This document shows, in pieces, positions 2,102-39,332 of a DNA stretch of 64,000 nucleotides. Every line of letters starts with the position of its first letter. The first letter of the stretch is position 1. Origin of the DNA: an uncultured Candidatus Saccharibacteria bacterium (GTDB lineage: Bacteria > Patescibacteriota > Saccharimonadia > CAILAD01 > JADZBC01). Below the pieces are notes generated by a model. It was not told where the DNA came from. It did no database searches and was given only the letters and a program-made list of their open reading frames with translations. The stretch spans positions 616 through 64,615 of the forward strand of contig CAYTBW010000002.1 of the NCBI GenBank assembly GCA_964436255.1, in the 5' to 3' direction. The translations under genes were made by a program, and so were the position numbers.

Positions 2102-3289
2102 ATGCCAAGACCAACACAAAAACAAAAAACAATAAAGCCAAGAATTGCGCCTAAGGCCGCGGGCCTTGCTGCCGCAAAAAAGTCCATAAAGTTCCGCTTA
2201 CCCTCCGCACTACTTGCGGCCGCTGTATTGGCGATTGTCGGGATAGCCTATGTTTTATTAACAAATGCCAGTACTAAGCCATACTCCAGGCTAGACTGCA
2301 CCTATGCAAAAGCCTATATGGGCGCAAAAGGCGATAGTAACTTAGAAAAGAAGAATGCTTGTCTAGATAAGAGTGCCGAAGCCATGGTGGCGAAGATACA
2401 CACAGCTATTTTCGGGCGTGATATCGCAGCTAATCAGGCTAGTTATAAGAAGTGGTCTGAGGTTTACATCGGTTTGCGTAAGGCCCCAGCAACGGAGTTC
2501 GCCAATAAATTACTGACAACCCCAGAGGCGAAAAGTGGTTACTGGAAGCTTTCAAATGGCGGGAAGATTGACAGATTATACCTGAACTTACTTGGACGTT
2601 CGGTCGACACGAAGGGAAGAGAGTTCTGGCTCAATTATCTGTTGCGGAACAAGTCCTCTAAGACAATCGCCGCGTTTGTAAGTTCTCCTGCCGTTGTTGC
2701 CAAACAGAGGCCAAGCGTAGCCGCAAGTTTAGCTACATTGCCTACGACATATCGACCCGAAGCTAGTCCATGCAAGAACGGCTTGAATGCGGCAGAGTGC
2801 AAAGCATTTGTGCAGGCAGTCCAGAGGTCAAAGGGCGAGAGGTGCAAACAGTATCCTTTGGGTGGTAATACCACTCCACTTTGCAAGCCAGGTTCAGCTG
2901 GAGCTGTGGGCGATGTGCTCGTTGAGCGCGGGATCGATGGCAGCAATGTTAATCTAAATAAGGCTGCAGCTGATAAATTCAAGGCCATGCGGCAGGCTGC
3001 CCGCCGCGAAGCTGGTATCTCTATTGAAGCTGCTGATGAGCTGGGAGGAGGGTATGGGAGTTATCGTACTCAAGCTATGCAGACCGAGCTAGTACGCAGA
3101 GGCTATCCTGCTGCCCCTGTAGGCCGCTCAATGCATCAATGGGGGCTAGCAATCGACTTTGCGTGCAATGGTAAGAAGTTTAACTCCTCTGGGGCTACGT
3201 GTCAGAATTGGATCAAGCGTAATGCTGGTAGATTTGGGTTTTATAACTTGCCTAGTGAACCTTGGCATTATTCTACTAACGGCAAGTAG
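2102..3289 (+). CDS. Membrane-anchored protein with a DUF4214 domain and a C-terminal M15 (VanY-like D-Ala-D-Ala carboxypeptidase) peptidase domain
   Basis: N-terminal TM anchor. 'DRLYLNLLGRSVDTKGREFWLNYLL' is a DUF4214-like motif. C-terminal 'SMHQWGLAIDF...EPWHY' is typical of LAS/M15 zinc peptidases. Confidence 0.5.
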   Translation: MPRPTQKQKTIKPRIAPKAAGLAAAKKSIKFRLPSALLAAAVLAIVGIAYVLLTNASTKPYSRLDCTYAKAYMGAKGDSNLEKKNACLDKSAEAMVAKIHTAIFGRDIAANQASYKKWSEVYIGLRKAPATEFANKLLTTPEAKSGYWKLSNGGKIDRLYLNLLGRSVDTKGREFWLNYLLRNKSSKTIAAFVSSPAVVAKQRPSVAASLATLPTTYRPEASPCKNGLNAAECKAFVQAVQRSKGERCKQYPLGGNTTPLCKPGSAGAVGDVLVERGIDGSNVNLNKAAADKFKAMRQAARREAGISIEAADELGGGYGSYRTQAMQTELVRRGYPAAPVGRSMHQWGLAIDFACNGKKFNSSGATCQNWIKRNAGRFGFYNLPSEPWHYSTNGK

Positions 3290-3292
3290 GCC

Positions 3293-3799
3293 TTAATCCC
3301 GGGGTTGTGCAAGTGCGTATAAGGCAATAGCACCCGCTACGCTAACATTGAGAGAGTTTTTTTGCCCACGCATCGGAATTTCTATAATGTGATCTGCAAG
3401 CGACAAGACGTCACTGCTAAGACCATCAACCTCGCTACCCAAGACCAGTGCTGCGTCCTTGCCACAAGTGGCCTCATTTAGTCTTTCCGTGTCCGGAACG
3501 TTGTTTTCCAAGCAGTAGATTTCATACCCTCGTGCCTTCAGTTCTCGAACGATTGAGCTAGCATCGTCCCGGTGCTCAAAAGAGACACCATCTTCTGCCC
3601 CAAGCGCTGTTTTACGTATCTCTTTAACATTTGAGCGGATAACGTGCTCAGGACGGGGGTCATTGTCTGTTCTTGGGTAGGGAGTGATTCCACACACATA
3701 TATCATATCAATACCAAGTCCATCGCAGGTTCGCATGAGCGACCCTACATTGTGTCCAGAACGAATATTATCTAGAACGAGTACCAACCTAGCCTTCAT
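3293..3799 (-). CDS. SpoU/TrmH-family RNA 2'-O-methyltransferase
   Basis: 'LVLDNIRSGHNVGSLMRTCDGLG' SpoU motif 1; ~168 aa SPOUT fold size. Confidence 0.6.
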   Translation of the reverse strand: MKARLVLVLDNIRSGHNVGSLMRTCDGLGIDMIYVCGITPYPRTDNDPRPEHVIRSNVKEIRKTALGAEDGVSFEHRDDASSIVRELKARGYEIYCLENNVPDTERLNEATCGKDAALVLGSEVDGLSSDVLSLADHIIEIPMRGQKNSLNVSVAGAIALYALAQPRD

Positions 3800-3864
3800 A
3801 GCAATATTGTCTCATATTGACGCGCAATAGGAAAAAGGTTATGCTGTAGGCAAGAACTAACCTT

Positions 3865-5082
3865 ATGGCAACAAAGCAAACAAAAAAGAAGAAGAAGACC
3901 TCGAAAAAGACTCCTTTGCTCGCAAAGAATAGGTTTAATTTACCAACTCTCATCGCTCTTGTTGGGGTGCTCTCGATGGTCGGTTACTATGTGCTCACTA
4001 CGTTTGCTGCCGGACCTGCTAGATTAAGCCCGAATTGCCCCGCAAGCGTCAGTAACGACACTGGGTATGCTTGTTATAGAGACAGTGCCGAAGGGTGGGC
4101 CACCAGGCTATTTATGACAATGTATGACCGGTCCCCTGATGGGACCAAGACTGCCGCGGGCGTTGCTACTGGGGGAGGGTACAAGTATTGGTCTGAGCAG
4201 ATAAGCGCTAAAGGGGTTGGCGCCTCCGCGGTGTCCATGTACACCGTTGCAGGAACTACTGACAAGGCCAGATTTAACAATTACACGCCCGAGCAAAAAG
4301 CTCAGGTGTTGTATACGCGTGCATTGGGGAGGAACGCTGACGCTGCGGGTATTGCATACTGGAAGCAACGTTTTGCCTCCGAACCTGCGGGAAATGTTGT
4401 TGTGGCGTTCTTGTCGCAAAACGAACCTAAAACTTTCAATAAAACTCTGAGCGTTAAGGTTTTGAATTTTATGAGGCCTGGCTGGAATACCACCACTACC
4501 CAGCCCCCTGTTGTTGTGAACCCACCGCAGCCGCCGGAAGAACCGGAGGAGCCGGAAGAGCCAGCATACAACCCAGCACCCGAGCAACCTCAATATGGGG
4601 GAGTCGATAATCCAGACTACAGCTTCGTGATACCAGATGACGGGTCAATTGGCGGAGGAACAGATGCTTTGCCGGAGCTGGGAGAGGTTAGCCTGGATGA
4701 CCTGTCAGGAGCCAGCGAAGATGACATAAGCAAGATCATTGAAGAGAAGACGCAATCGAGCGGAGACGGCCTTGATAGCGAAGCTGCAGCTAGGTCGTAT
4801 GGCGGAAAGCTCAAGATTCTGCCCCCCGAAGAGGCCATTGCTAATGGCGCGAATGAACTGCGCTACTACATAAACGGTAAACTCAAAGCTACCGTTAAAA
4901 AGGCTCCATATGCCTACACGCTTGATTCTACCCGAATGAAGAATGGGCGCTACGTTCTCTCGATCGTCCCATATCAGGATGGCGAGAAGCTGGATGAATA
5001 TAGCTACGTACTGAGCGTGAAGAATACGCTGACCTTCTGGCAGAAGATCTACAACCTCATTAGCTCACCATTTGCCAAATAG
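3865..5082 (+). CDS. Membrane-anchored/secreted DUF4214 protein with a Pro/Glu-rich linker and a C-terminal beta-rich domain (N-terminal paralog of 2102..3289)
   Basis: Lys-rich N-terminus plus TM helix. 'AQVLYTRALGRNADAAGIAYWKQRF' DUF4214 motif. PPQPPEEPEEPEEP linker encoded by 9-bp tandem repeats at 4534-4560. Confidence 0.45.
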   Translation: MATKQTKKKKKTSKKTPLLAKNRFNLPTLIALVGVLSMVGYYVLTTFAAGPARLSPNCPASVSNDTGYACYRDSAEGWATRLFMTMYDRSPDGTKTAAGVATGGGYKYWSEQISAKGVGASAVSMYTVAGTTDKARFNNYTPEQKAQVLYTRALGRNADAAGIAYWKQRFASEPAGNVVVAFLSQNEPKTFNKTLSVKVLNFMRPGWNTTTTQPPVVVNPPQPPEEPEEPEEPAYNPAPEQPQYGGVDNPDYSFVIPDDGSIGGGTDALPELGEVSLDDLSGASEDDISKIIEEKTQSSGDGLDSEAAARSYGGKLKILPPEEAIANGANELRYYINGKLKATVKKAPYAYTLDSTRMKNGRYVLSIVPYQDGEKLDEYSYVLSVKNTLTFWQKIYNLISSPFAK

Positions 5083-5467: not shown

Positions 5468-5917
5468 TTAGCCTAGAACAGTAAGGGTGATGGCGTCGTG
5501 CGGGTTGGAGCTCGCCTGCCATTTGCAGCCACATAGGAAGCAGCGGAAGTTGTGAGGATCTTTTGCGCCTGGTAGGCAGAAGTTTTTACAGTGCGGGCAT
5601 GATGATCGCGCACTAAGCCAGTGATCATAGGTGTCGATACAGGATTGGATATATGCATCATTCACCTGCACGCCATGCTCGATACATAAGCGCTTCGTTA
5701 AGTGCCAGGCCTGCGCTTCCATGATGAGAAGCTCAAAGTCGTTCGCAAAGGTAAAATGTCCAAGTTCTGCATGGCTAATTTCGTGGAGCAGGGATAATCT
5801 GCCTTCGTTTGATCTCAGCTCGTTTTCGTCATAATGAATCAGCTCCTCGCTTGCGTCAAATGCGAAGTAGCCAGATGGCACAAAGCTGTAGTTTGGATAA
5901 CTCTGAATAATATCCAT
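5468..5917 (-). CDS. ImmA/IrrE-family (COG2856-like) HExxH metallopeptidase with a C-terminal Cys-rich zinc ribbon
   Basis: 'LLHEISHAELGH' HExxH motif in ImmA/IrrE context. C-terminal CPHC...CFLCGC. Start moved to internal ATG 5917, which has a GGAGGG RBS 6 nt upstream (the ORF-track start at 5950 lacks an RBS). Confidence 0.45.
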   Translation of the reverse strand: MDIIQSYPNYSFVPSGYFAFDASEELIHYDENELRSNEGRLSLLHEISHAELGHFTFANDFELLIMEAQAWHLTKRLCIEHGVQVNDAYIQSCIDTYDHWLSARSSCPHCKNFCLPGAKDPHNFRCFLCGCKWQASSNPHDAITLTVLG

Positions 5918-15427: not shown

Positions 15428-16338
15428 ATATAGTTGGTCGACGTAAGCTGTGGTTTACCATCTCGCTGGTAATGATAATCCCAGGTATGATTTCGCTTGC
15501 GCTTTGGGGACTAAAGCTTGGCATTGATTTCCGGGGTGGTCAGGAAATGGAGCTACGCGGCGGTCAGGATCAGGCAAAGGTCCGAACTATATTCGTGAGT
15601 TCTGGTGCTGATGACGTGACAGTAACTACTACGGGCAATGGTGGACTACTCATTCGCTACCGCAGTGATGAAAAGGATGCTAAGAAGTCAGACGAAAAGA
15701 TTAAGCAAGACCTGAGTAAGGCCGGCTACGTCCAGGTATCGTTTAGCTCAGTCGGGCCGTCTGTGAGTAAGGACATCACTCGCAATGCGCTTATTAGTAT
15801 CTTCTTGGCCTCACTCGCTATCTTGCTCTACATTGCCTTTGCCTTCCGCAATGCGCCACCACCAGTGAGCCCTTGGAGCTTTGGTGGATCCGCGATTATC
15901 GCCATGCTTCATGACGCATTACTCTTGATTGGTCTGTTTTCGATCCTCGGCCACTTCTTTGGCGTACAGGTGGATAGCTTGTTTGTAACTGCAGTACTTA
16001 CGGTAATTGGATTCTCTGTGCACGACACCATCGTGGTGTTTGACCGTGTGCGCGAGAACTTGCGGCGCTATAACAAGCCATTTGACGAAGTAGTGAATCT
16101 GAGCGTGAACGAAACGCTGGCTAGGTCTCTGAACACCTCCATTACCGTCATCCTGACCCTAACGGCACTCTTGCTGTTCGGTGGTGAATCAATCCGACTC
16201 TTCGTACTCGCTTTGCTGGTAGGAATTATTTCTGGGACGTTCTCATCAATCTTCAACGCGTCACCAATGCTGGTAGTTTGGAACAACCGAAAACTCAAGC
16301 AAAAAGCTAAAAGAGAGCAAGCAGCCAAGAAGAAGTAG
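15424..16338 (+). CDS. secF: Protein translocase subunit SecF
   Basis: SecF TM domain; overlaps the secD stop. Confidence 0.85.
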   Translation: MNIVGRRKLWFTISLVMIIPGMISLALWGLKLGIDFRGGQEMELRGGQDQAKVRTIFVSSGADDVTVTTTGNGGLLIRYRSDEKDAKKSDEKIKQDLSKAGYVQVSFSSVGPSVSKDITRNALISIFLASLAILLYIAFAFRNAPPPVSPWSFGGSAIIAMLHDALLLIGLFSILGHFFGVQVDSLFVTAVLTVIGFSVHDTIVVFDRVRENLRRYNKPFDEVVNLSVNETLARSLNTSITVILTLTALLLFGGESIRLFVLALLVGIISGTFSSIFNASPMLVVWNNRKLKQKAKREQAAKKK

Positions 16339-16348
16339 GGCAAATCTA

Positions 16349-16843
16349 GTGAAAGATAGTCTCAGCGTTTATATCGGCCCAGGCAGATTGGCCGGTAGAG
16401 CTGTTTATGCGGCTCGGGACTTTCAAGAAGGCGAGATGGTGAAGAGCTGGGACTTGCGGGAGCTAAACCAGGCCGAGTATGATGCGCTCCCACAAAATGA
16501 GCGCATGTTCGTGCATTCATTCTGGGGCAAGATGTATTTATTCCCAGAGCCATCGCGCTATACCAACCACTCTGCGGATCCGAATACACATGCAGATATG
16601 GGGAAGATGTGCGATTATGCTTTGCGCCCGATAGCGAAGGGGGAGATGATTACCACGAATGCAACTCTCGAGATCTGGAATGAACTCAAGACGTTCGTTG
16701 GGGCTCTTGAGGGCACACGAGTATCTGAATTCGAGTGGATAACGGGCGGATATAGGAATGCCGCGGTACGTTACATGGTTAGCGGGAAAGCTAAAAGTCT
16801 CCGCCTACGAAGAGTGGATGGTAATTGGCGTGTGGTCGATTAA
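16349..16843 (+). CDS. SET-domain protein (putative lysine methyltransferase)
   Basis: 'RYTNHSADPN' resembles the SET 'NHSCxPN' motif, followed by 'GEMITTN'. GTG start. ~160 aa minimal SET size. Confidence 0.45.
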   Translation: MKDSLSVYIGPGRLAGRAVYAARDFQEGEMVKSWDLRELNQAEYDALPQNERMFVHSFWGKMYLFPEPSRYTNHSADPNTHADMGKMCDYALRPIAKGEMITTNATLEIWNELKTFVGALEGTRVSEFEWITGGYRNAAVRYMVSGKAKSLRLRRVDGNWRVVD

Positions 16844-16849
16844 CAGCTT

Positions 16850-18046
16850 CTATTTACTACGGACAATGTAGTAGCCGTCTTGAGCGTCAGGGTCGGCGCT
16901 GTCTTCTAGCTTGGCAGCTATGGTGAAGGTTGATCCATCGGACTTATATGCGTATTTGATCTTGGTTTCCGGAGTGCTGGATGGATCGTAGTTGATTATC
17001 GTGATGTAGGGAGGGGTAGTGTACTGCAACGGGTAAATGACCTTGATGTCATCGCCAGCTGGATATGTGCCCTGCTGCTGCTTGTAAACCTCTAATGCTG
17101 CCGAGATGGTATTTAGGTCGTCTTTACGCTTTTGATCGCGTGCGGTGGCCTCTGGTGACGCCTCAGGGGGTCCGGGGACTTGCGGCTGATTGGCGTTCGT
17201 CGCAGCTGGCACTACCTGGTTCCTGTTTTGGCGAGAGAGCATCCATACCCCAATTGCGGCCACAAGTGCTAAGCATAGAATGGTTCCAATCAGCAGGGTC
17301 GCTTGTTTGCCCTTGGGTTTCTTTGAGGCCGAGTCAGTTTTGGCCGCCTGCTCATCCCTGGCCATAGGTGGCTTGACTTGTGGTTCTGGGGCTTTCTCTG
17401 CTTGGTTCTGGTTAACTGCAGTACTACTCGCTGAATCTGCCGGGCTGGTCTGGTCAACACCTCGCTCCGCGATCTCTTCGGCTAGCTCATAGGCCATGGT
17501 GTGCTTTGAGGCCTCGACTTCTTCCTGCGTAAATGGCACAGGTGTCGGGGGTTTTTCGACGAGCTCTTGCTGGGGCAGCTCTGGGCGGTCAAGTTTCGAG
17601 AGCAGGGCTGCTTGGCTTAACTCCGAGTCGAGATTAGGTTGTTCGATTGGGCTTTTTAGCTCAGGGCCAGAGAATGAGTTTGGCAATTCTGGACCATCGA
17701 GCTTGCTTGGTAGTTCAGGGACAACCAGGCGCTTTAGGCGTGCTTTGAGCCGATGCCGGAAGCGCAAGGCGTCTTGCTTAGTTACTGTCTGTGTCATTGG
17801 GACGTTCTGAGCCGGGTCGGGCACTTGTGCTGGTGTGTGCTCAGTAGTGGGGGTGGGCGGGAACGGATCTTCCGAAAGGGTTGGCGTTGCATGAACTGCA
17901 GCGTGGGTATGCATGGGCTGTGAGGGGATAGGGTGCTCGTGTTTAACCAGGGTCCCGCACTCCATACAGACGTCACCAACGGCAGTATGAACCATTGGCT
18001 GCTTGCAGGTCGGGCAGGGTGGAGGGGTGTGTGGGTCTTCGATCAT
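16850..18046 (-). CDS. Membrane protein: cytoplasmic N-terminal zinc ribbon, Pro-rich region, single TM, extracytoplasmic type IV pilin/pseudopilin-like C-terminal domain
   Basis: 'CPTCKQ...CMECG' zinc ribbon. TM 'LLIGTILCLALVAAIGVWML'. Post-TM 'RDQKRKDDLNTISAALEVYKQ' resembles the pilin N-terminal helix continuation, and 'TFTIAAKLE' is pilin-like. Start set at internal ATG (MIEDPH). Confidence 0.4.
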   Translation of the reverse strand: MIEDPHTPPPCPTCKQPMVHTAVGDVCMECGTLVKHEHPIPSQPMHTHAAVHATPTLSEDPFPPTPTTEHTPAQVPDPAQNVPMTQTVTKQDALRFRHRLKARLKRLVVPELPSKLDGPELPNSFSGPELKSPIEQPNLDSELSQAALLSKLDRPELPQQELVEKPPTPVPFTQEEVEASKHTMAYELAEEIAERGVDQTSPADSASSTAVNQNQAEKAPEPQVKPPMARDEQAAKTDSASKKPKGKQATLLIGTILCLALVAAIGVWMLSRQNRNQVVPAATNANQPQVPGPPEASPEATARDQKRKDDLNTISAALEVYKQQQGTYPAGDDIKVIYPLQYTTPPYITIINYDPSSTPETKIKYAYKSDGSTFTIAAKLEDSADPDAQDGYYIVRSK

Positions 18047-18103
18047 GATAATTCTTACGTTTATTATACCGATTATTAGGTTATTTGCCCAGAAACATAA
18101 CAA

Positions 18104-18213
18104 TAAAGAAAAAAATTGTTCAAAAAACTGTTGTGTTTTAGACTGTTGTAGATTTATACTAAGTAGTAAGTAATTTAAGTTATAAACAAAGAAAAAGTTG
18201 ATAAAAAAACAAT
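18104..18213. promoter_or_regulatory. AT-rich divergent promoter region with direct repeats (ACTGTTGT x2, 15-nt spacing) and TATACT-like -10 elements
   Basis: 110-nt, ~75% AT intergenic region between divergent genes. Direct repeat at 18127-18134 and 18142-18149. Confidence 0.35.
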
Positions 18214-18486
18214 ATGCTAAAGCTCTTCATAACATCAAAAACAAGACGAAAAATCATCACGATTTACAGTAAATATCCTGACTACCGGGTGCACGTACGT
18301 GGCCTGGCAAAGATTTTGCGTGAAGACCCGGGCAACATCCAACGCGAGCTTGCTCGCATGGAGAAGATTGGCTATGTAAAGTCTGCCAAAGAAGGCAACG
18401 CCAAGGTTTACTGGGTAAATCAGCAGTTCCTCCTCTTTAAAGAGCTGCAAAGTATGGTTCTAAAAACATCAAGGAAGAAGTCATAA
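18214..18486 (+). CDS. Small winged-helix DNA-binding protein (MarR/ArsR/TrmB-like)
   Basis: 'GLAKILREDPGNIQRELARMEKIGYV' HTH plus wing pattern. 90 aa. Confidence 0.4.
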   Translation: MLKLFITSKTRRKIITIYSKYPDYRVHVRGLAKILREDPGNIQRELARMEKIGYVKSAKEGNAKVYWVNQQFLLFKELQSMVLKTSRKKS

Positions 18487-18489
18487 ACA

Positions 18490-18675
18490 ATGAGTATCCT
18501 CGTAAAAATCAAAAATCAATTCACCAAACAAGACATATACCGACAAAAGGCAGAGAAGATGGCTCAAACACAACAGTTTTTGCACGCTCACCGTCAGGCC
18601 TATCGTTCGGAAGCGCCGCTAGGGTTTAAGACTCGATCGGAAAGTAGCTACCACTTAGCTCGCGCTAGCAGGTAG
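18490..18675 (+). CDS. Hypothetical small basic protein
   Basis: ORF begins 4 nt after the wHTH gene; no recognisable domain. Confidence 0.2.
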   Translation: MSILVKIKNQFTKQDIYRQKAEKMAQTQQFLHAHRQAYRSEAPLGFKTRSESSYHLARASR

Positions 18676-18715
18676 ACCTGTTTAGCGCAGGTAGATAATC
18701 CTCTATACTGAGGAC

Positions 18716-20434
18716 ATGTCGACCGAACCAAAACCAGTCAAAACAGAAAACGCCAAGTCGTATACGTGGCGTTTTTTGTCTGGATCAGATCGGGCGGTTA
18801 CGAGTGCAGCCAGGCTGCGTGAGCTCATTTTACGTCAGCGTGGCGTGGAGCCAGAGCAGCAAGAGGCCTTCGTGTCGCCTGACTATAATGGGCTTCACGA
18901 CGCTGGACTTTTGAGTGGTGTGGGGTTGGCTGTAGAGCGTATTAACCACGCATTGGCGAATGGGCAAAAGATTGTTGTGTATGGGGATTATGATATTGAC
19001 GGCATAACAGCTACTGCTCTGCTGGTAGACGTACTCTCTCAGCTTGGGGCTCAAGTAAGCCCCTACATTCCAGACCGGTTTGAAGAGGGGTACGGTTTGA
19101 ATTTGGCTGCACTTAAGGCGCTCAAGTCAGACGGTGCCGATCTCCTCATTAGTGTGGATTGCGGTATTACCGCAGCGCACGAGGTGGCAGAAGCCGCGAA
19201 GTTTGGACTCGACATTATCGTAACCGATCATCATACAGTGCCAGAAGAAACTCCCGAAGCTGCAATAGCCTGCATAAATCCCCGCCTACCGGGCGACGAG
19301 TATCCATTCAAGGATCTAGCCGGTGTGGCCGTAGCATTTAAATTGGCCGTTGCCTTGGTCGCGGTACACCCTGACAAAGTAAAACCTGGTCGCGAAAAGT
19401 GGTTACTCGACCTGGTAGCGCTCGGCACGGTATGCGATGTGGTGCCCCTCGCGGGGGAAAACCGCGCATTAGTGCAGTTCGGGCTGACGGTGTTGCGCAA
19501 GAGCCCGCGGCCGGGACTCAGGGCATTAGCCGAAGCGAGTGGAGTGGAGCTCGCTAGCGTTCAGGCCTCGGATTTGGGTTTCCGGTTCGGCCCGCGACTG
19601 AATGCCGCAGGGCGCCTAGAGCACGCAGCTAAGGCACTGGAACTCATTACCACGACAGATACCGACCGGGCCAAAGAGCTGGCGGAGGGACTGAACGAAC
19701 TCAACCGCGAGCGACAAGACGAAACAGCGCGTGTGTTCGCGGAGGCAATGCAGCAATCCGAAGGCTATCTAGACGATGCCATTTTGGTACTTTCTGGCCA
19801 GGATTGGTCACATGGCATAGTCGGACTGGTTGCCAGCAGAGTTAGTGAGGCTCGGCATAAACCGACGATTATTTTGCAACAACTCGGCAAGACTACCAAG
19901 GGCTCTGCGCGTAGTGTTGGTACTTTTAATATTATCGAGGCGATTACGAGCGCAAAGCAACACTTAGAGCGTTACGGCGGGCATGCTTTTGCTGCTGGCA
20001 TGACACTCAAGACGAGTAAAGTGGTCGATTTGCGCAAAGCGCTCAATGCATACGCTGCCCAACACGAGTCAGAACTTAGTACGCAAAAGGAGCTCGTCGT
20101 TACCTGTCAGCTCGACGGGGGGATTTTGAATACCCAGTTGCTGACGCAGCTCGAGGCCTTGGAGCCGTATGGCAACGCCAACCCTCAGCCAATATTTGCG
20201 TCCAAGCTTAAATTGGTGCGCATGCGTCCAGTCGGTGCAGATCAAAAGCATTTGCAGATGAATTTCGAGGCTTCAGTGGGGCAGCTCGGCGCCATTGCCT
20301 TCAGCGCCGCTGGGCGCTGGCCCTGGCTTGAATTAGGGCAGCTGGTCGAAGTGGCCTACAGGGCGTCCAAAAACGTCTGGCAGGGGGTTGAGAGCCTCCA
20401 GCTCGAAGTGGTCGACATTCGACCGCTCCAGTAA
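18716..20434 (+). CDS. recJ: Single-stranded-DNA-specific exonuclease RecJ
   Basis: DHH 'VVYGDYDIDGITATALL', DHHT motif, DHHA1 domain, C-terminal OB-like region. Confidence 0.85.
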   Translation: MSTEPKPVKTENAKSYTWRFLSGSDRAVTSAARLRELILRQRGVEPEQQEAFVSPDYNGLHDAGLLSGVGLAVERINHALANGQKIVVYGDYDIDGITATALLVDVLSQLGAQVSPYIPDRFEEGYGLNLAALKALKSDGADLLISVDCGITAAHEVAEAAKFGLDIIVTDHHTVPEETPEAAIACINPRLPGDEYPFKDLAGVAVAFKLAVALVAVHPDKVKPGREKWLLDLVALGTVCDVVPLAGENRALVQFGLTVLRKSPRPGLRALAEASGVELASVQASDLGFRFGPRLNAAGRLEHAAKALELITTTDTDRAKELAEGLNELNRERQDETARVFAEAMQQSEGYLDDAILVLSGQDWSHGIVGLVASRVSEARHKPTIILQQLGKTTKGSARSVGTFNIIEAITSAKQHLERYGGHAFAAGMTLKTSKVVDLRKALNAYAAQHESELSTQKELVVTCQLDGGILNTQLLTQLEALEPYGNANPQPIFASKLKLVRMRPVGADQKHLQMNFEASVGQLGAIAFSAAGRWPWLELGQLVEVAYRASKNVWQGVESLQLEVVDIRPLQ

Positions 20435-20457: not shown

Positions 20458-23067
20458 ATGGAAAAACAAGGCGCTCAGTTTCTACACTCCAAGCAGCCGA
20501 GTCTACATGTTGGGGCTGCTGTAGAGCACGAGCAAGCTCGCCGCGAGCGCTCAGCTGGAGAGACGAGCCAGAAGCCTTCGGAAAAGATAGCTGCTTGGCT
20601 TGAGATATTAGAGCGCACCCATGGGCACTCAGATTCAAGAGTTAATGACAGGATTAAGTCTTCGTACCACAAAGAATACGTTATTAAACCCGAAAACGTA
20701 CCAGAATCAACCTTTCAACTAGAGCAGCGTATAGCCCGTAATCTTGGTCACGGCGATATCCCTATTACCGACGAATTCAGGGCAGCTAAGACCAGGGAGA
20801 TTATTGAGAACCAAGAAGCCAGTTTGGATAAATGGATTGATTACTTAACCTCTGACGACGCCACTTATCCTACATGGGCCAAGTACTGGGCTTTTACGTC
20901 TATTGTAAAGATGGGCAAGATAGAAAAGAAAACCGTCGAGCTTGAAGATGGCACCGAGCGGGAAACGGCACGCTTTGGAACACGTACGCGTGATACTACG
21001 GCACCATTCCCACCCCTTAACCCCAGGGCGCTAGCAATGGCAGTTGGAGTCATGGAGCGGCATTTAGCTTGGAAGGCATTACCCAAAGACGCGCGAAAGA
21101 CGAATCCACTTGCTAATGAGAGTAAACGACTTAGTGATGAGGAGTTTAGAAGGCTACTAACCACTGAAAGTTTTGATGACCTCTATACCCAATTCCTAAT
21201 TGAGTTACCCGAATATTCTACCGAAGGCCTGAGGGAAACCCGGGGTGAGTGGCGCAAATACGATCAAGGGAGCGACCCAGCTCCACTCGTTGATTCACTT
21301 GATGGCCACCCGTTGGAATGGTGTACTGCCAACTTTAGTACGGCATTAACCCATTTGCAGGGAGGAGACTTTTTTGTTTATTATTCGATAGATCAGGAGG
21401 GTAGCCCGACGGTTCCAAGGGTGGCCATTCGAATGGCTGGGGATAGTATTGCTGAGGTAAGAGGAATCGCACCAGATCAGCAGCTCGATCCATATATCGC
21501 CGATGTGGTAAGTGAGAAGATGGCTGAATTCCCCGATGGAGAAGGTTACCAAAAGAAGGCTGCCGACATGGCGAGGCTTACAGAGATAGAGGACACTATT
21601 CAGCAGGGAGCCGAAATAAGTAGGGAGGATTTGCAGTTTCTATATGAAATTCAACATCCAATAGAAGGTTTTGGATACCACCGTGATCCACGAATAGATC
21701 TCTTGAGGCAGGGAAGAGATGTGCGGAGTGACCTGGTAAAGGCACTCGACTGCCGACCTGAGCAGATTAGCTTGACTGCAGCGGAGGCAACTCATGGTAC
21801 TTCCGAAAACCCCATTTTATTTCATTATGGGGATCTACTTTTAACCAGCCTAAGTTCAGCTCCGGGTCTTAGATTGCCAGATGTGGTCGGCGGGAAGCTT
21901 GATCTAAGTAGTCTAGAAGCCCCTAACGGGCTGACTTTGCCTAAGGAGGTTCGTGGGACTCTCGACCTGTCCAGTCTCGAAAGTGCAGATGGGCTTGATT
22001 TGCCATATTATGTGGGAGGAAATCTCAATCTTGGTGGGATAATACTCCCGTTTGGACTTCGCTTGCCGGCGGCGGTTGGCGGGAGTATTGGGCTTCAGTC
22101 GCTGGAAAGCGCAAAAGGTATTGTTTTTCCAGCTTCAAGCGGGGGTATAGAACTACAGAGTCTGAAGAGTGCAAAAGGTTTAGTATTGCCGAGCGAGGTT
22201 CACGGGACCCTTGATCTAACCGGACTTCTAGATGGCGAAGGGCTAATATTGCCAACATTTATTGGGGAGTATTTGTTTCTTGATAGCTTGCAGAAAGCAG
22301 ATGGATTAAGGCTGCCAGAGTCTGTAAAGGACATCATTCAATTGCCAGCGCTTAAGAGCGCGGAGGGCCTTAGTATCCCTCGCAATATTAAATGTGCCTT
22401 ACTAGATCTTAGTGGTCTTACGAATGCCGACGGTCTGGTTTTACCTCCGGAAGAACTAGATGCTAGCTTGGATCTCTCTGGCCTAACAGATGCTAAGGGG
22501 CTCACTTTACCACGTATTATTCGTGGTGAGCTTAACATGAGCCAGCTAAAGAGCGCCGATGGATTGATACTACCAGAGGTAATCAATGAAGGGCTCTACC
22601 TCGAAAACTTAGCGAGTGCTAAGGGCTTAAATTTACCGCGAATAATTAAGGGAGATCTTGATCTTAATGGGCTTCTTGACGCAACAGACTTCGTTTTTCC
22701 TGAGGGGTTGGAGTGTTCTGGCATCTATCTTCCGAGTCTTGTTCGGGCTAGTGGTCTCGTATTTCCGCATCGTGTCAGTGGCCAGTTGATCATGGACCGA
22801 CTTAGCTCCGCGCAGGGGGTAGTAATGCCTCGGGTGGTTGGTAGTCTCGACCTATCCGGCCTAGAAAGTACAGAAGGCCTTATGCTGCCCTCTCAAATTG
22901 ATAGCTCCCTTATACTTTGTCGTTACGAAGGCGGCGGGGCGGGTGGTTATGTCAGGGTCTCGGGCTTAACGGGTGAACAAATTCGCGAGGTACTATCGCA
23001 GCGGCCTGATTTGCGTGAAAAACTCAGGGGTGCACCACCATGGATACTCGGCGAACCAGCAGACTAG
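20458..23067 (+). CDS. Large protein: ~470-aa unknown N-terminal domain plus ~16 tandem 21-aa LRR-like repeats (GLxLPxxVxGxLDLSxLxSAx)
   Basis: No signal peptide or TM. Repeats occupy ~21.86-22.92 kb; consensus is reminiscent of BspA/TpLRR-type 'LPxxV..G' leucine-rich repeats. Confidence 0.5.
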   Translation: MEKQGAQFLHSKQPSLHVGAAVEHEQARRERSAGETSQKPSEKIAAWLEILERTHGHSDSRVNDRIKSSYHKEYVIKPENVPESTFQLEQRIARNLGHGDIPITDEFRAAKTREIIENQEASLDKWIDYLTSDDATYPTWAKYWAFTSIVKMGKIEKKTVELEDGTERETARFGTRTRDTTAPFPPLNPRALAMAVGVMERHLAWKALPKDARKTNPLANESKRLSDEEFRRLLTTESFDDLYTQFLIELPEYSTEGLRETRGEWRKYDQGSDPAPLVDSLDGHPLEWCTANFSTALTHLQGGDFFVYYSIDQEGSPTVPRVAIRMAGDSIAEVRGIAPDQQLDPYIADVVSEKMAEFPDGEGYQKKAADMARLTEIEDTIQQGAEISREDLQFLYEIQHPIEGFGYHRDPRIDLLRQGRDVRSDLVKALDCRPEQISLTAAEATHGTSENPILFHYGDLLLTSLSSAPGLRLPDVVGGKLDLSSLEAPNGLTLPKEVRGTLDLSSLESADGLDLPYYVGGNLNLGGIILPFGLRLPAAVGGSIGLQSLESAKGIVFPASSGGIELQSLKSAKGLVLPSEVHGTLDLTGLLDGEGLILPTFIGEYLFLDSLQKADGLRLPESVKDIIQLPALKSAEGLSIPRNIKCALLDLSGLTNADGLVLPPEELDASLDLSGLTDAKGLTLPRIIRGELNMSQLKSADGLILPEVINEGLYLENLASAKGLNLPRIIKGDLDLNGLLDATDFVFPEGLECSGIYLPSLVRASGLVFPHRVSGQLIMDRLSSAQGVVMPRVVGSLDLSGLESTEGLMLPSQIDSSLILCRYEGGGAGGYVRVSGLTGEQIREVLSQRPDLREKLRGAPPWILGEPAD
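21860..22925 (+). repeat. Tandem ~63-bp coding repeats (21-aa LRR-like units) within the 20458..23067 gene
   Basis: Periodic 'GGxxTxxxxTTxCC' pattern encoding GL.LP..V.G.L.LS.L.SA. Confidence 0.55.
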
Positions 23068-37813: not shown

Positions 37814-38737
37814 ATGAGTAAAATCTACGACGTAATCATAATCGGAGCGGGACCGGCTGGCTATACGGCTGCTATATATACCTCTCGCGCCAGCTTGAGC
37901 ACGCTGATGATCGCTGGCGATACGCCAGGCGGCCAGCTGCTGTTAACGGGCGAAGTCGAGAACTTCCCTGGATTCAAAGAGGGTATTACCGGCCCTGCAC
38001 TGATGGATGAAATGAAGGCGCAGGCCAAGCGCTTCGGCACCGAGCTAATAAGCGAATTCGTAACCAAAGTAGAGCTCGACGGCGACGTAAAGAAGGTTTA
38101 CGTGGGCGAGGAAACGTATGAAGCGAAAACTGTAATTATTTCTACCGGCGCATCTGCTAACTGGTTGGGGCTTAAGAATGAACAACGCCTTATGAGCCAC
38201 GGCATAAGCGCCTGTGCTACCTGCGATGCATTCTTCTTCCGCGATAAAGAAGTGGTAGTTGTGGGCGGCGGCGACGTTGCAATGGAAGAGGCTCACGCGC
38301 TCACAAAGTTCGCTAGTAAGGTTTACATTGTTCACCGGCGCGACACGTTGCGGGCTAGTAAGATTATGCAAAAGCGCGCCATGGATGACCCTAAGATTGA
38401 TTTTATATGGAACACCGAAGTAATTGATGTACTCGGTAAAGACAACGTAGAGGGCGTTCGACTGAAAGATACCAAAGACGGCAGTGAGCGGGACTTTGCT
38501 TGTCAGGGTATGTTTGTGGCGATTGGCCACACCCCTGCTACTAGTTTATTCAAAGAATCTTTGGAATTGGACGAAAAAGGATACATTAAGGCCAAGGACT
38601 CAGTACTAACGGACATTCCAGGGGTCTTTGCAGCTGGCGACGTAGTTGATGCGCGCTACCGACAAGCCATTACGGCTGCGGGCGATGGTTGCCGTGCTGC
38701 ACTCGAAGTTGAACATTACCTCGCAAGTAAAGAGTAG
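37814..38737 (+). CDS. trxB: Thioredoxin reductase
   Basis: FAD 'GAGPAGYTAAIY', redox-active 'CATCDAFF', NADPH 'VVGGGD'. Start at ATG 37814. Confidence 0.85.
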   Translation: MSKIYDVIIIGAGPAGYTAAIYTSRASLSTLMIAGDTPGGQLLLTGEVENFPGFKEGITGPALMDEMKAQAKRFGTELISEFVTKVELDGDVKKVYVGEETYEAKTVIISTGASANWLGLKNEQRLMSHGISACATCDAFFFRDKEVVVVGGGDVAMEEAHALTKFASKVYIVHRRDTLRASKIMQKRAMDDPKIDFIWNTEVIDVLGKDNVEGVRLKDTKDGSERDFACQGMFVAIGHTPATSLFKESLELDEKGYIKAKDSVLTDIPGVFAAGDVVDARYRQAITAAGDGCRAALEVEHYLASKE

Positions 38738-38738
38738 T

Positions 38739-39332
38739 ATGGCCCAGGACGAAGCTTACAAGGCCCAAATAGAACGGCTCAAGCGCCGCGTTGCCGAGCT
38801 AGAACAGCAGGCGCATACCGATGAGCTAACGAGCATTATGAATCGTCGTGGTTTGATGCAGATGCTCACCGCCTTCACCCAAGAAGTAGACTTTCAGCTC
38901 AAGAATCCCGACCGAAGGCAGTTCCTTATCATTAAGTCGCTTAGCATACTATTTGTAGACGTAGATGATTTCAAAAAGATTAATGACCAATACGGCCACG
39001 GCATAGGCGATAAAGTATTATGCGAGATTGCGGCTTCGATTCGCGGTTCACTGCGAGGAATTGATGTGGTTGGTCGCTATGGCGGGGAGGAGATTGTGGT
39101 TGGCCTGATTGGGGCAGATCTGGATAGAGCTGCTAAGATTGCAGAAGACTTGCGAAGAAAGATTGAGGCCTTGCGATTTGATGGAGAAGCAGATGGACTG
39201 GGTGTCACCGCGTCATTTGGAGTTGCAAGCATGGCGGCTGGTTTAAGCGTTCAGGAATTATTGGGGCGTGCGGATGCGGCATTAAGCTCCGCTAAGGCAA
39301 ATGGCAAAAACAGGGTAGAGCTGCATGGCTAA
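38739..39332 (+). CDS. GGDEF-domain diguanylate cyclase (GGEEI variant) with an N-terminal coiled coil
   Basis: 'RYGGEEIVV' A-site with an RxxD I-site ('RGID') 5 residues upstream. Start ATG 38739 is 1 nt after the trxB stop. Confidence 0.75.
   Translation: MAQDEAYKAQIERLKRRVAELEQQAHTDELTSIMNRRGLMQMLTAFTQEVDFQLKNPDRRQFLIIKSLSILFVDVDDFKKINDQYGHGIGDKVLCEIAASIRGSLRGIDVVGRYGGEEIVVGLIGADLDRAAKIAEDLRRKIEALRFDGEADGLGVTASFGVASMAAGLSVQELLGRADAALSSAKANGKNRVELHG

Follow-up and report, generated by a model that had tools for sequence, protein, structure and literature searches.

A conserved membrane protein of Saccharibacteria with a predicted cytoplasmic zinc ribbon and a tethered pilin head

In Caulobacter crescentus the bitopic membrane protein ZitP binds PopZ through its N-terminal CxxC-x19-CxxC ribbon, and pilus biogenesis separately requires its periplasmic domain (PMC5182063). 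In the archaellum, FlaF (ArlF) is a membrane-anchored non-filament protein whose soluble domain anchors the machine to the S-layer (PMC4425475). Here we analyze a gene for a bitopic protein that joins a predicted zinc ribbon to a pilin head. The gene occupies positions 16850..18046 on the minus strand of a 64-kb stretch of contig CAYTBW010000002.1 (64,000 nucleotides, hereafter the window), and is defined by its open reading frame (ORF) and translation, by 17 full-length relatives and by approximately 30 further clusters of the same architecture. The source organism belongs to the Saccharibacteria (Saccharimonadia), and every named relative is a metagenome-assembled genome of the same group. 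The product starts from the ATG at 18046, is 398 aa long (plus stop), and consists of a zinc ribbon, a disordered region, a single transmembrane helix, a linker and a pilin head. A preliminary description, made from the letters of the window, had proposed an ORF with a zinc ribbon, low-complexity sequence, a transmembrane helix and a pilin-fold ectodomain in this order, and the ORF, the alignment of relatives and AlphaFold2 (AF2) models bear it out.

The C-terminal domain is a GspG-type pilin head of approximately 100 aa (residues 298-398, 16853..17155 on the minus strand), since three independent tests agree: the prepilins found by phmmer, the AF2 and Foldseek analysis, and the comparison of the family profile with the Protein Data Bank (PDB). 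The AF2 model of the domain alone was built from 48 aligned sequences and reached a predicted local distance difference test score (pLDDT) of 95 and a predicted template-modelling score (pTM) of 0.86. It shows the upper half of a pilin helix (a 28-residue helix, residues 298-325), a short helix and a three-stranded sheet. When compared with the PDB by Foldseek, the top 23 matches were all type IV pilins or pseudopilins, the best being PulG 1t92, EpsG 3gn9, 4lw9 and 3fu1, with template-modelling scores on the query (TMq) of 0.60-0.65 and probabilities of 0.99-1.0 for the best chains. The profile of the zinc-ribbon family found EpsG/GspG chains in the PDB at E values between 2e-7 and 1e-3. A phmmer search with the head domain against 1.84 billion representative proteins gave 398 matches at E <= 1e-3, the best 150 of which were classified. 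Among the matches listed there are 26 true prepilins of the GFTLIE type (E 1e-8 to 2e-5), built from a short basic leader, GFTLIE and a hydrophobic helix that is directly followed by RD.KRK.DL..I..ALE.Y...G.YP, as at the start of the head. The head misses the curated thresholds of both PF08334 T2SSG (13.6 bits against 21, E 0.07) and TIGR01710 GspG (14 bits against 88.85, E 0.04). The pilin-like start of the ectodomain noted in the preliminary description is thus confirmed by the predicted structure; its size of about 120 aa is not, as the linker had been counted in.

It is clear from the alignment of 18 sequences that the head is by far the best-conserved part of the protein, with nearly all of the 46 invariant columns falling within it. 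In the P0012 lineage identity reaches 72% in the head but 38% over the whole protein, and it amounts to 85% and 67% in SecF and RecJ, respectively. The most conserved stretch of the head, G.DI..IYPLQYTTPPYI..NYDPSS, is situated between the helix and the sheet, a region that in pilins is variable and interaction-prone. Since the head changes about as slowly as SecF and RecJ from the same genomes, we infer that its ligand would be a conserved component of the cell's own envelope, and that the head would not be a host-specific adhesin directed at a variable host receptor.

The N-terminal C4 domain (CPTC-x12-CMEC, residues 9-37, 17936..18022 on the minus strand) is a predicted zinc ribbon. Its cysteines C11, C14, C27 and C30, together with G24, show no variation in 22 family members, and the full-length AF2 model has three short strands here with a pLDDT of approximately 80. 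In Pfam the ribbon gave generic sub-threshold matches only, with DZR appearing in 13 of the 22 members. The full-length model, based on 18 sequences, was poor (pLDDT 53) and was used for secondary-structure hints only, the domain-only model having taken its place for the head. The following residues 41-245 (approximately 205 aa) contain 15% Pro, 11% Ala and 10% Glu and have pLDDT values mostly below 50, and two elements stand out by AF2 and conservation. One, at residues 90-158 (17573..17779, minus strand), consists of a basic amphipathic helix, RFRHRLKARLKRLVV, modelled at residues 90-107 with a pLDDT of approximately 78 and leading into VVPELPS, and of four PEL[PK] copies at residues 110, 119, 128 and 155. 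In the 22-member alignment E111 is invariant and L100, L107 and L112 are nearly so. The other is a short acidic helix, AYELAEEIAER (residues 184-194, 17465..17497, minus strand; AF2 helix over the same residues), in which E190 and I192 are invariant and A185, A189, A193 and E194 nearly invariant. A profile covering the zinc ribbon to the PELP motifs gave zero matches in a collection of 5.8 billion proteins, where even the family members were not recovered, which makes this search uninformative, and PADLOC and PHROGs contained nothing for the zinc-ribbon protein.

The single transmembrane helix (residues 247-270, 17237..17308 on the minus strand) is supported by a hydropathy of 2.55 over residues 249-267 and by an AF2 helix over residues 247-274, and has the basic stretch KKPKGK on its N-terminal side. 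It is followed by a Pro/Ala-rich linker of approximately 27 aa (residues 271-297, 17156..17236, minus strand), recognized by its composition (22% Pro and 22% Ala over residues 276-302) and by low pLDDT over residues 277-290; its length and sequence differ from member to member across the family. The topology would be N-in/C-out, as basic residues precede the transmembrane helix, zinc ribbons are cytoplasmic and pilin heads are extracytoplasmic, and this would place the ribbon and the motifs in the cytoplasm and the linker and the head outside.

Although the head is that of a pilin, prepilin peptidase cleavage or entry into a pilus fibre is very unlikely, because a class III signal peptide, Glu5 and an unbroken hydrophobic helix at the N-terminus of the head are all missing. 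The prepilin pattern G[FMLIVYW][TS][LIVMF][LIVMFA]E, which does find the 26 true prepilins among the other matches, has no match in the 398-aa protein or in P0001-P0047, and neither a Gly at position -1 nor Glu5 is conserved at the transmembrane helix across the zinc-ribbon family. The transmembrane helix and the head helix are split by the Pro-rich, low-confidence linker, and the hydrophobic lower half of the pilin helix is absent from the head. As this continuous lower helix is missing, the domain cannot pack into a fibre core. Nor does the genomic context point to pili. Scans of the 64-kb window with the prepilin motif and the head profile turned up neither a further pilin-like domain nor a plausible gene with a prepilin motif. 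A Pfam search of approximately 26 of the larger ORFs in the window revealed no pilus machine or prepilin peptidase genes; the genes found were of the housekeeping type (IF2, fmt/def, priA, secDF, recJ, ftsA/ftsZ, ftsW, parAB, ileS, pyk and others). No type IV pilus gene (PilB/PilC/PilD/PilMNO) was called in any related locus examined.

The head type is not restricted to the zinc-ribbon family. Out of 111 non-family head matches listed, 65 are single-pass proteins with the head detached from the transmembrane helix, and in 53 of these the head is C-terminal; the rest comprise 33 pilins or pilin-like proteins and 13 proteins devoid of a transmembrane helix that may be fragments. Cytoplasmic motifs, PDTDEFLKxIL being one, recur in many of these 65 proteins. 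Judged by sequence style alone, most of the detached-head proteins beyond the zinc-ribbon family would belong to the candidate phyla radiation (CPR). One group of them makes up a second tethered-head family, seen at L101 8001-9185, L102 8001-10088, L103 7001-8476 and L104 6478-8994, with a long disordered cytoplasmic N-terminus (KSPLE, PDTDEFLKxIL), one transmembrane helix and a C-terminal pilin head. At all four loci the gene directly follows that of a Ctp (S41) protease. In three of them lemA comes after it, with an M48 protease gene further on in two of those three, and in two of the four ftsE, ftsX and a gene with a C39_2 domain precede it; pilus genes adjoin none of the four. This type of pilin head has thus been re-used as a general ectodomain whose known genomic company is envelope and division proteolysis and not pili. 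Since detached heads are common within this group and the four examined lie beside Ctp, two of them also near ftsEX, both the association with pili and the unusual architecture put forward in the preliminary description lose weight. No description of the architecture was found in the literature searched, and its relatives all carry either no name or the label "hypothetical". We consider it unlikely, and put it forward as speculation, that detached heads with disordered, motif-bearing tails form a widespread CPR-specific class of transmembrane couplers that includes both the zinc-ribbon and the Ctp-side family, with the head reading or holding the state of the envelope or the pilus and the motifs passing it to partners in the cytoplasm.

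The architecture of zinc ribbon, transmembrane helix and head was found in approximately 45 clusters at 50% identity, first in the 17 full-length relatives and then in about 30 clusters from the search of representative proteins, and all of these are Saccharibacteria wherever the organism is named. In the head-type loci examined the gene is convergent with secD-secF and divergent from a gene for a winged helix-turn-helix (wHTH) protein of 90-107 aa, which is followed by an ORF of 55-65 aa and usually by recJ, and the same gene order is kept down to members in which the head is only 34-50% identical. Both neighbourhood and architecture recur in many related genomes, so the protein is no spurious ORF extension.

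For a wider view, 80 metagenome loci were fetched via the wHTH gene, and the gene upstream of it was classed as head, tail or none. In the tail state, seen in approximately 20 loci (for example L019, L031 and L043), a protein of 164-251 aa has the ribbon CPxC...GxxCxxCG and the motif KRL[MV]VPELP, followed by a C-terminal transmembrane anchor and no ectodomain. The PELP motif of the basic-helix region is thus common to this tail-anchored clade as well, and BLASTP aligned tail proteins with the window protein from the ribbon through VPELP at E values of 6e-8 and 2e-6. In the none state the zinc-ribbon gene is missing at the wHTH locus. When the SecF and RecJ sequences of 39 loci were concatenated and a neighbour-joining tree was built, the head lineages came out paraphyletic and fell to either side of the midpoint root. 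The tail loci grouped in one nested clade and the none loci in another. Parsimony suggests that the head is ancestral and was lost once, and that the gene as a whole was lost or moved once. As a large clade keeps the module and its anchor under selection with no ectodomain, there must be an independent function in the cytoplasmic half, and the core of the family would seem to be the cytoplasmic module of zinc ribbon and motifs held at the membrane, not the pilin head.

The wHTH protein encoded divergently from the zinc-ribbon gene (18214..18486, plus strand; 90 aa, isoelectric point 10.4) is core to Saccharibacteria, with 35 invariant columns. It falls into 632 clusters, and identity is at least 66% among the best 120 of the 632. 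It missed the thresholds of HTH_5 PF01022 (14.4 bits against 22) and of the metalloregulator model NF033788 (20 bits against 55), its best Pfam match HVO_A0114 was below threshold as well (22.9 against 27.6), and its profile had no match among PDB sequences. It did match the N-terminal wHTH of PADLOC PDC-M05A (90 of 201 positions, E 3e-16), and weakly Csa3 and CasR. A role in a defence system was rejected, as this is homology at the level of the domain and each of the genes occurs once, at a fixed place in a block of housekeeping genes. Three nucleotides past the stop of the wHTH gene starts a co-directional ORF for a basic protein of 61 aa with an isoelectric point of 10.5 (18490..18675, plus strand), for which no family match was obtained in curated family models, PADLOC or PHROGs. 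Out of 32 loci examined, 26 have such a small ORF (48-64 aa) behind the wHTH gene, with the C-terminal motif P-[LIV]-G-F-x-x-R-[ST]-x-x-x-[YF][FY], and the 61-aa ORF is a real gene. In the none clade the motif of the small ORF reads VPELP[IL]GF and resembles VVPELPS of the zinc-ribbon protein, which may be a coincidence. The divergent wHTH gene and basic ORF of the preliminary description are thus both real and conserved.

A spacer of 167 nt with 77% AT separates the two start codons. Its high AT content had been noted before; the length of 110 nt given for it was counted from the TTG at 18103, and that shorter stretch has 80% AT. An extension of the zinc-ribbon gene to this TTG, offered by the ORF finder, was rejected, as the homologues begin at the equivalent ATG and the promoter match falls within the extension. 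This promoter-like site of the zinc-ribbon gene (18063..18091, minus strand) reads TGGGCA-17 nt-TATAAT, with 10 out of 12 matches in the scan, and the TATAAT together with TGGGCAAA is kept in the close clade. On the other strand, a probable -10 box TATACT of the wHTH promoter was read from the sequence at 18155..18160 (plus strand), and TTGTGT (18131-18136), 18 nt upstream, overlaps the first copy of a direct repeat. TATACT or TATAAT is kept at this position in the head and tail clades; the promoter scan did not call the wHTH promoter, as its -35 has only 3 of 6 matches.

The direct repeat, ACTGTTGT-N7-ACTGTTGT (18127..18149, plus strand; copies at 18127-18134 and 18142-18149), contains two GTTGT half-sites and is a candidate operator in the wHTH promoter. 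As an 8-mer repeat by itself it is within chance, since some 8-mer direct repeat occurred in 39% of the spacer shuffles and one within 30 nt in 12%, and its significance on this ground alone was rejected. Its conservation is another matter: the first copy is kept in 11 of 11 aligned loci, as is AAAAAACTGTTGT, and 56 of 61 loci have GTTGT on the wHTH strand at most 110 nt ahead of the wHTH start, compared to 4.9 expected from shuffles (maximum 12) and to 8% of random windows. The arrangement differs between clades. The window and tail clades show GTTGT-N6-GAC-TGTTGT 4-5 nt ahead of TATACT, some tail loci (L022, L029) have the palindrome TGTTGT-N4-ACAACA, and in the none clade GTTGTAAAAAAGAC-TTGCAT-17-TAGAGT is followed by TTAACAACA, so that the half-sites flank the promoter. 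In L015, which shares its contig with L054, a near-perfect inverted repeat is found at ~5700-5800, between the zinc-ribbon and wHTH genes. Its arms of approximately 30 nt contain GTTGTCA and TGACAAC and place GTTGT half-sites inside a long palindrome. Rfam had no match in 16000-19500, and thus no known RNA that would account for the conserved spacer.

As the GTTGT element persists where the zinc-ribbon gene is absent, it belongs to the promoter of the divergent operon of the wHTH gene and the small ORF, and it is probably the autoregulatory operator of the wHTH protein itself. The window repeats are situated 36-63 bp upstream of the -35 of the zinc-ribbon gene promoter; an effect on that gene is possible, not indicated, and any such effect would be secondary. 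The operator suggested in the preliminary description is therefore a real repeat and a plausible candidate, yet its GTTGT core is that of the wHTH promoter and provides no tie between the wHTH protein and the zinc-ribbon gene.

We tentatively favour, with slightly less than even confidence, the idea that the protein is a membrane-anchored adaptor of Saccharibacteria, in which the zinc ribbon and the linear motifs would recruit a cytoplasmic partner to the membrane while the exapted pilin head would fix or position the protein on a conserved extracytoplasmic component. Several points weigh against this picture and its parts. The adaptor role is read from architecture and conservation patterns, and both the N-in/C-out topology and the binding of zinc by the C4 ribbon are predictions. 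The SecF and RecJ tree is a neighbour-joining tree, rooted at its midpoint and carrying no support values, so that a single loss of the head is a parsimony reading, and in the none clade the zinc-ribbon gene may sit elsewhere in the genome. Binding of the wHTH protein to GTTGT is deduced from co-conservation, and since the first copy overlaps the likely -35 hexamer in the window clade, the conservation could partly be that of a promoter sequence.

A function at the pilus is the alternative that deserves most attention. The tethered head could dock on type IV pilins or on PilMNO at the pilus base while the cytoplasmic part brings in regulators or ATPase-associated factors, and this would agree with the homology of the head to genuine CPR prepilins and GspG, with the near universality of type IV pili in Saccharibacteria (PMC11623550) and with ZitP, which links a zinc finger to pilus biogenesis. 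We regard it as unlikely, with a real chance of being right: neither the window scans nor the related loci examined contain a pilin, prepilin peptidase or pilus machine gene, so that the pilus association of the preliminary description finds no support, the four other tethered-head genes adjoin the Ctp protease gene (two of them also ftsEX) and none of them pilus genes, and a whole clade does without the head. The same clade speaks against an anti-sigma-like partnership, in which the zinc-ribbon region would keep the wHTH protein membrane-bound pending detection of an external signal by the head, because the tail-anchored proteins have no sensor domain. Head and tail clades alike keep the two genes as a divergent pair, and candidate operator sites lie between them, as such a partnership would have it, but the wHTH protein is far more conserved than the zinc-ribbon protein, it persists together with its GTTGT sites in lineages with no zinc-ribbon gene at the locus, and the HxxxCxxC anti-sigma motif is absent. 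The signalling role suggested earlier is weakened accordingly and appears decidedly improbable to us.

Still less probable is a surface adhesin, in which the pilin head on its flexible tether would bind the surface of the host bacterium. Saccharibacteria are epibionts for which host binding by pilins is described (PMC11623550), and an extracytoplasmic domain on a Pro-rich tether would suit this role, yet the head is among the most conserved parts and evolves at a housekeeping-like pace, the opposite of what is seen in host-specific adhesins, the tether is short (approximately 27 aa), and the head has disappeared from one clade. An atypical prepilin with a giant leader of 245 residues, processed at the transmembrane helix and polymerised, is suggested by the basic stretch and Gly ahead of this helix in the window protein (KKPKGK-QATLLIG). 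Since Gly and Glu5 are not conserved across the family, the Pro-rich linker breaks the helix needed for fibre packing and the prepilin pattern finds no match, we give this very little credence. A spurious ORF extension or an assembly artefact that fused unrelated pieces has practically no chance, being refuted by the same full-length architecture in the approximately 45 clusters from independent assemblies and samples.

The remaining features of the region concern the neighbouring genes. A functional link of the zinc-ribbon gene to secDF and recJ from synteny was rejected, as the order of this backbone looks ancestral; relA and hisS come after recJ in L014 and L017, and in Bacillus subtilis secDF, recJ, relA and hisS are presumably also close together. 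Between secF and the zinc-ribbon gene the window encodes a 164-aa SET-domain protein (16349..16843, plus strand; PF00856, E 4e-8), a position at which L002 has no gene. Between recJ and rpsU lies the gene for an 869-aa protein (20458..23067, plus strand) with many leucine-rich repeats of approximately 22 aa (LxLPxxVxGxLDLSxLxSAxGL), for which neither Pfam nor PADLOC gave a match; it is not found at that position in L001 and L002 and is thus a lineage-specific insertion. In L017, from the none lineage, 1.4 kb between secF and the wHTH gene (2583-4000) have no called gene, one plus-strand ORF of 136 aa and no match in Rfam. Further downstream the window encodes a stand-alone GGDEF diguanylate cyclase domain protein (38646..39332, plus strand; PF00990, E 1e-36), in what is a small genome.

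Saccharibacteria live attached to other bacteria, and their surface proteins are central to this life, with most of them unannotated. The use of a fibre-subunit head as the fixed ectodomain of ordinary membrane proteins is a new use of the pilin fold. It can lead to the wrong annotation "GspG", a name that one tethered-head relative already carries in NCBI. Given that a clade without the head exists in nature, the two halves of the protein are predicted to have functions that can be separated. If the CPR coupler class were true, it would link envelope and cytoplasm in a way not known from other bacteria. The wHTH protein, the small protein and the GTTGT sites would make up a regulatory unit that is conserved throughout the sampled lineages of Saccharibacteria and may rank among the first proposed regulator-operator pairs of the phylum and could help in the choice of promoters for new genetic tools. 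We consider the structural claim solid and the evolutionary pattern neat, for a feature confined to uncultivated Saccharibacteria.

When these proteins are compared with known systems, the regulator next to the zinc-ribbon gene resembles ArsR, MarR and Csa3 regulators in the winged-helix signature of its 90 aa, and the source names of its relatives are wHTH, ArsR or MarR. It differs from them in missing all curated thresholds, in having no sensor or effector domain, and in being encoded by a core gene that is single-copy, keeps a fixed locus and is accompanied by one for a conserved small protein. The zinc-ribbon protein is unlike the zinc-binding anti-sigma factors (ZAS), as it has CxxC-x12-CxxC with no conserved His in place of HxxxCxxC, and no sigma factor gene adjoins it. 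With ZitP it shares the cytoplasmic CxxC...CxxC ribbon, one transmembrane helix and a small C-terminal extracytoplasmic domain, and the separable halves of ZitP find a parallel in the tail-anchored clade that keeps the cytoplasmic half only. The Cys spacing is x12 and not x19, the ectodomain is a pilin head and not DUF3426, ZitP is alphaproteobacterial, and no sequence relationship was detected; Zinc_ribbon_5 (PF13719) was not among the 25 Pfam families, of 96, that were matched by the largest numbers of the 22 family N-termini. FlaF is a precedent for a membrane-anchored non-filament protein tying a type IV machine to the envelope, and differs in being archaeal, in its N-terminal anchor with no cytoplasmic domain, in its place in the archaellum operon and in its beta-sandwich fold.

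The single-pass CPR proteins with detached heads (P0018, P0050, P0054 and P0131) come closer, with a disordered cytoplasmic N-terminus, one transmembrane helix, a linker or further ectodomain, and a C-terminal head of the same subfamily (E 1e-13 to 1e-5), whereas they have no zinc ribbon, carry other motifs (PDTDEFLKxIL), belong to the Ctp S41 side and are not beside secDF or the wHTH gene. A preprint on a "novel CPR pilus" was rejected as a description of the present protein, as it concerns the unrelated Ig-fold Pam pilins. The fold itself is that of the pseudopilins GspG, PulG and EpsG and of type IV pilins (T2SSG, PF08334), as a small antiparallel sheet supports the upper half of the N-terminal helix; the head has the motifs RD..RK.DL..I..ALE.Y....G.YP and DP...Y.Y.SDG in common with them and, like that of GspG, is free of disulphides. 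Unlike in these proteins, the head forms the C-terminal end of a bitopic protein of 398 aa, where it follows an ordinary transmembrane helix and a Pro-rich linker, with no class III signal peptide, Glu5 or hydrophobic lower helix and no pilus or secretion machine genes found nearby. The fold and the single domains are thus known, and what is new is that a membrane protein with a zinc ribbon bears a tethered pilin head that would not polymerise.

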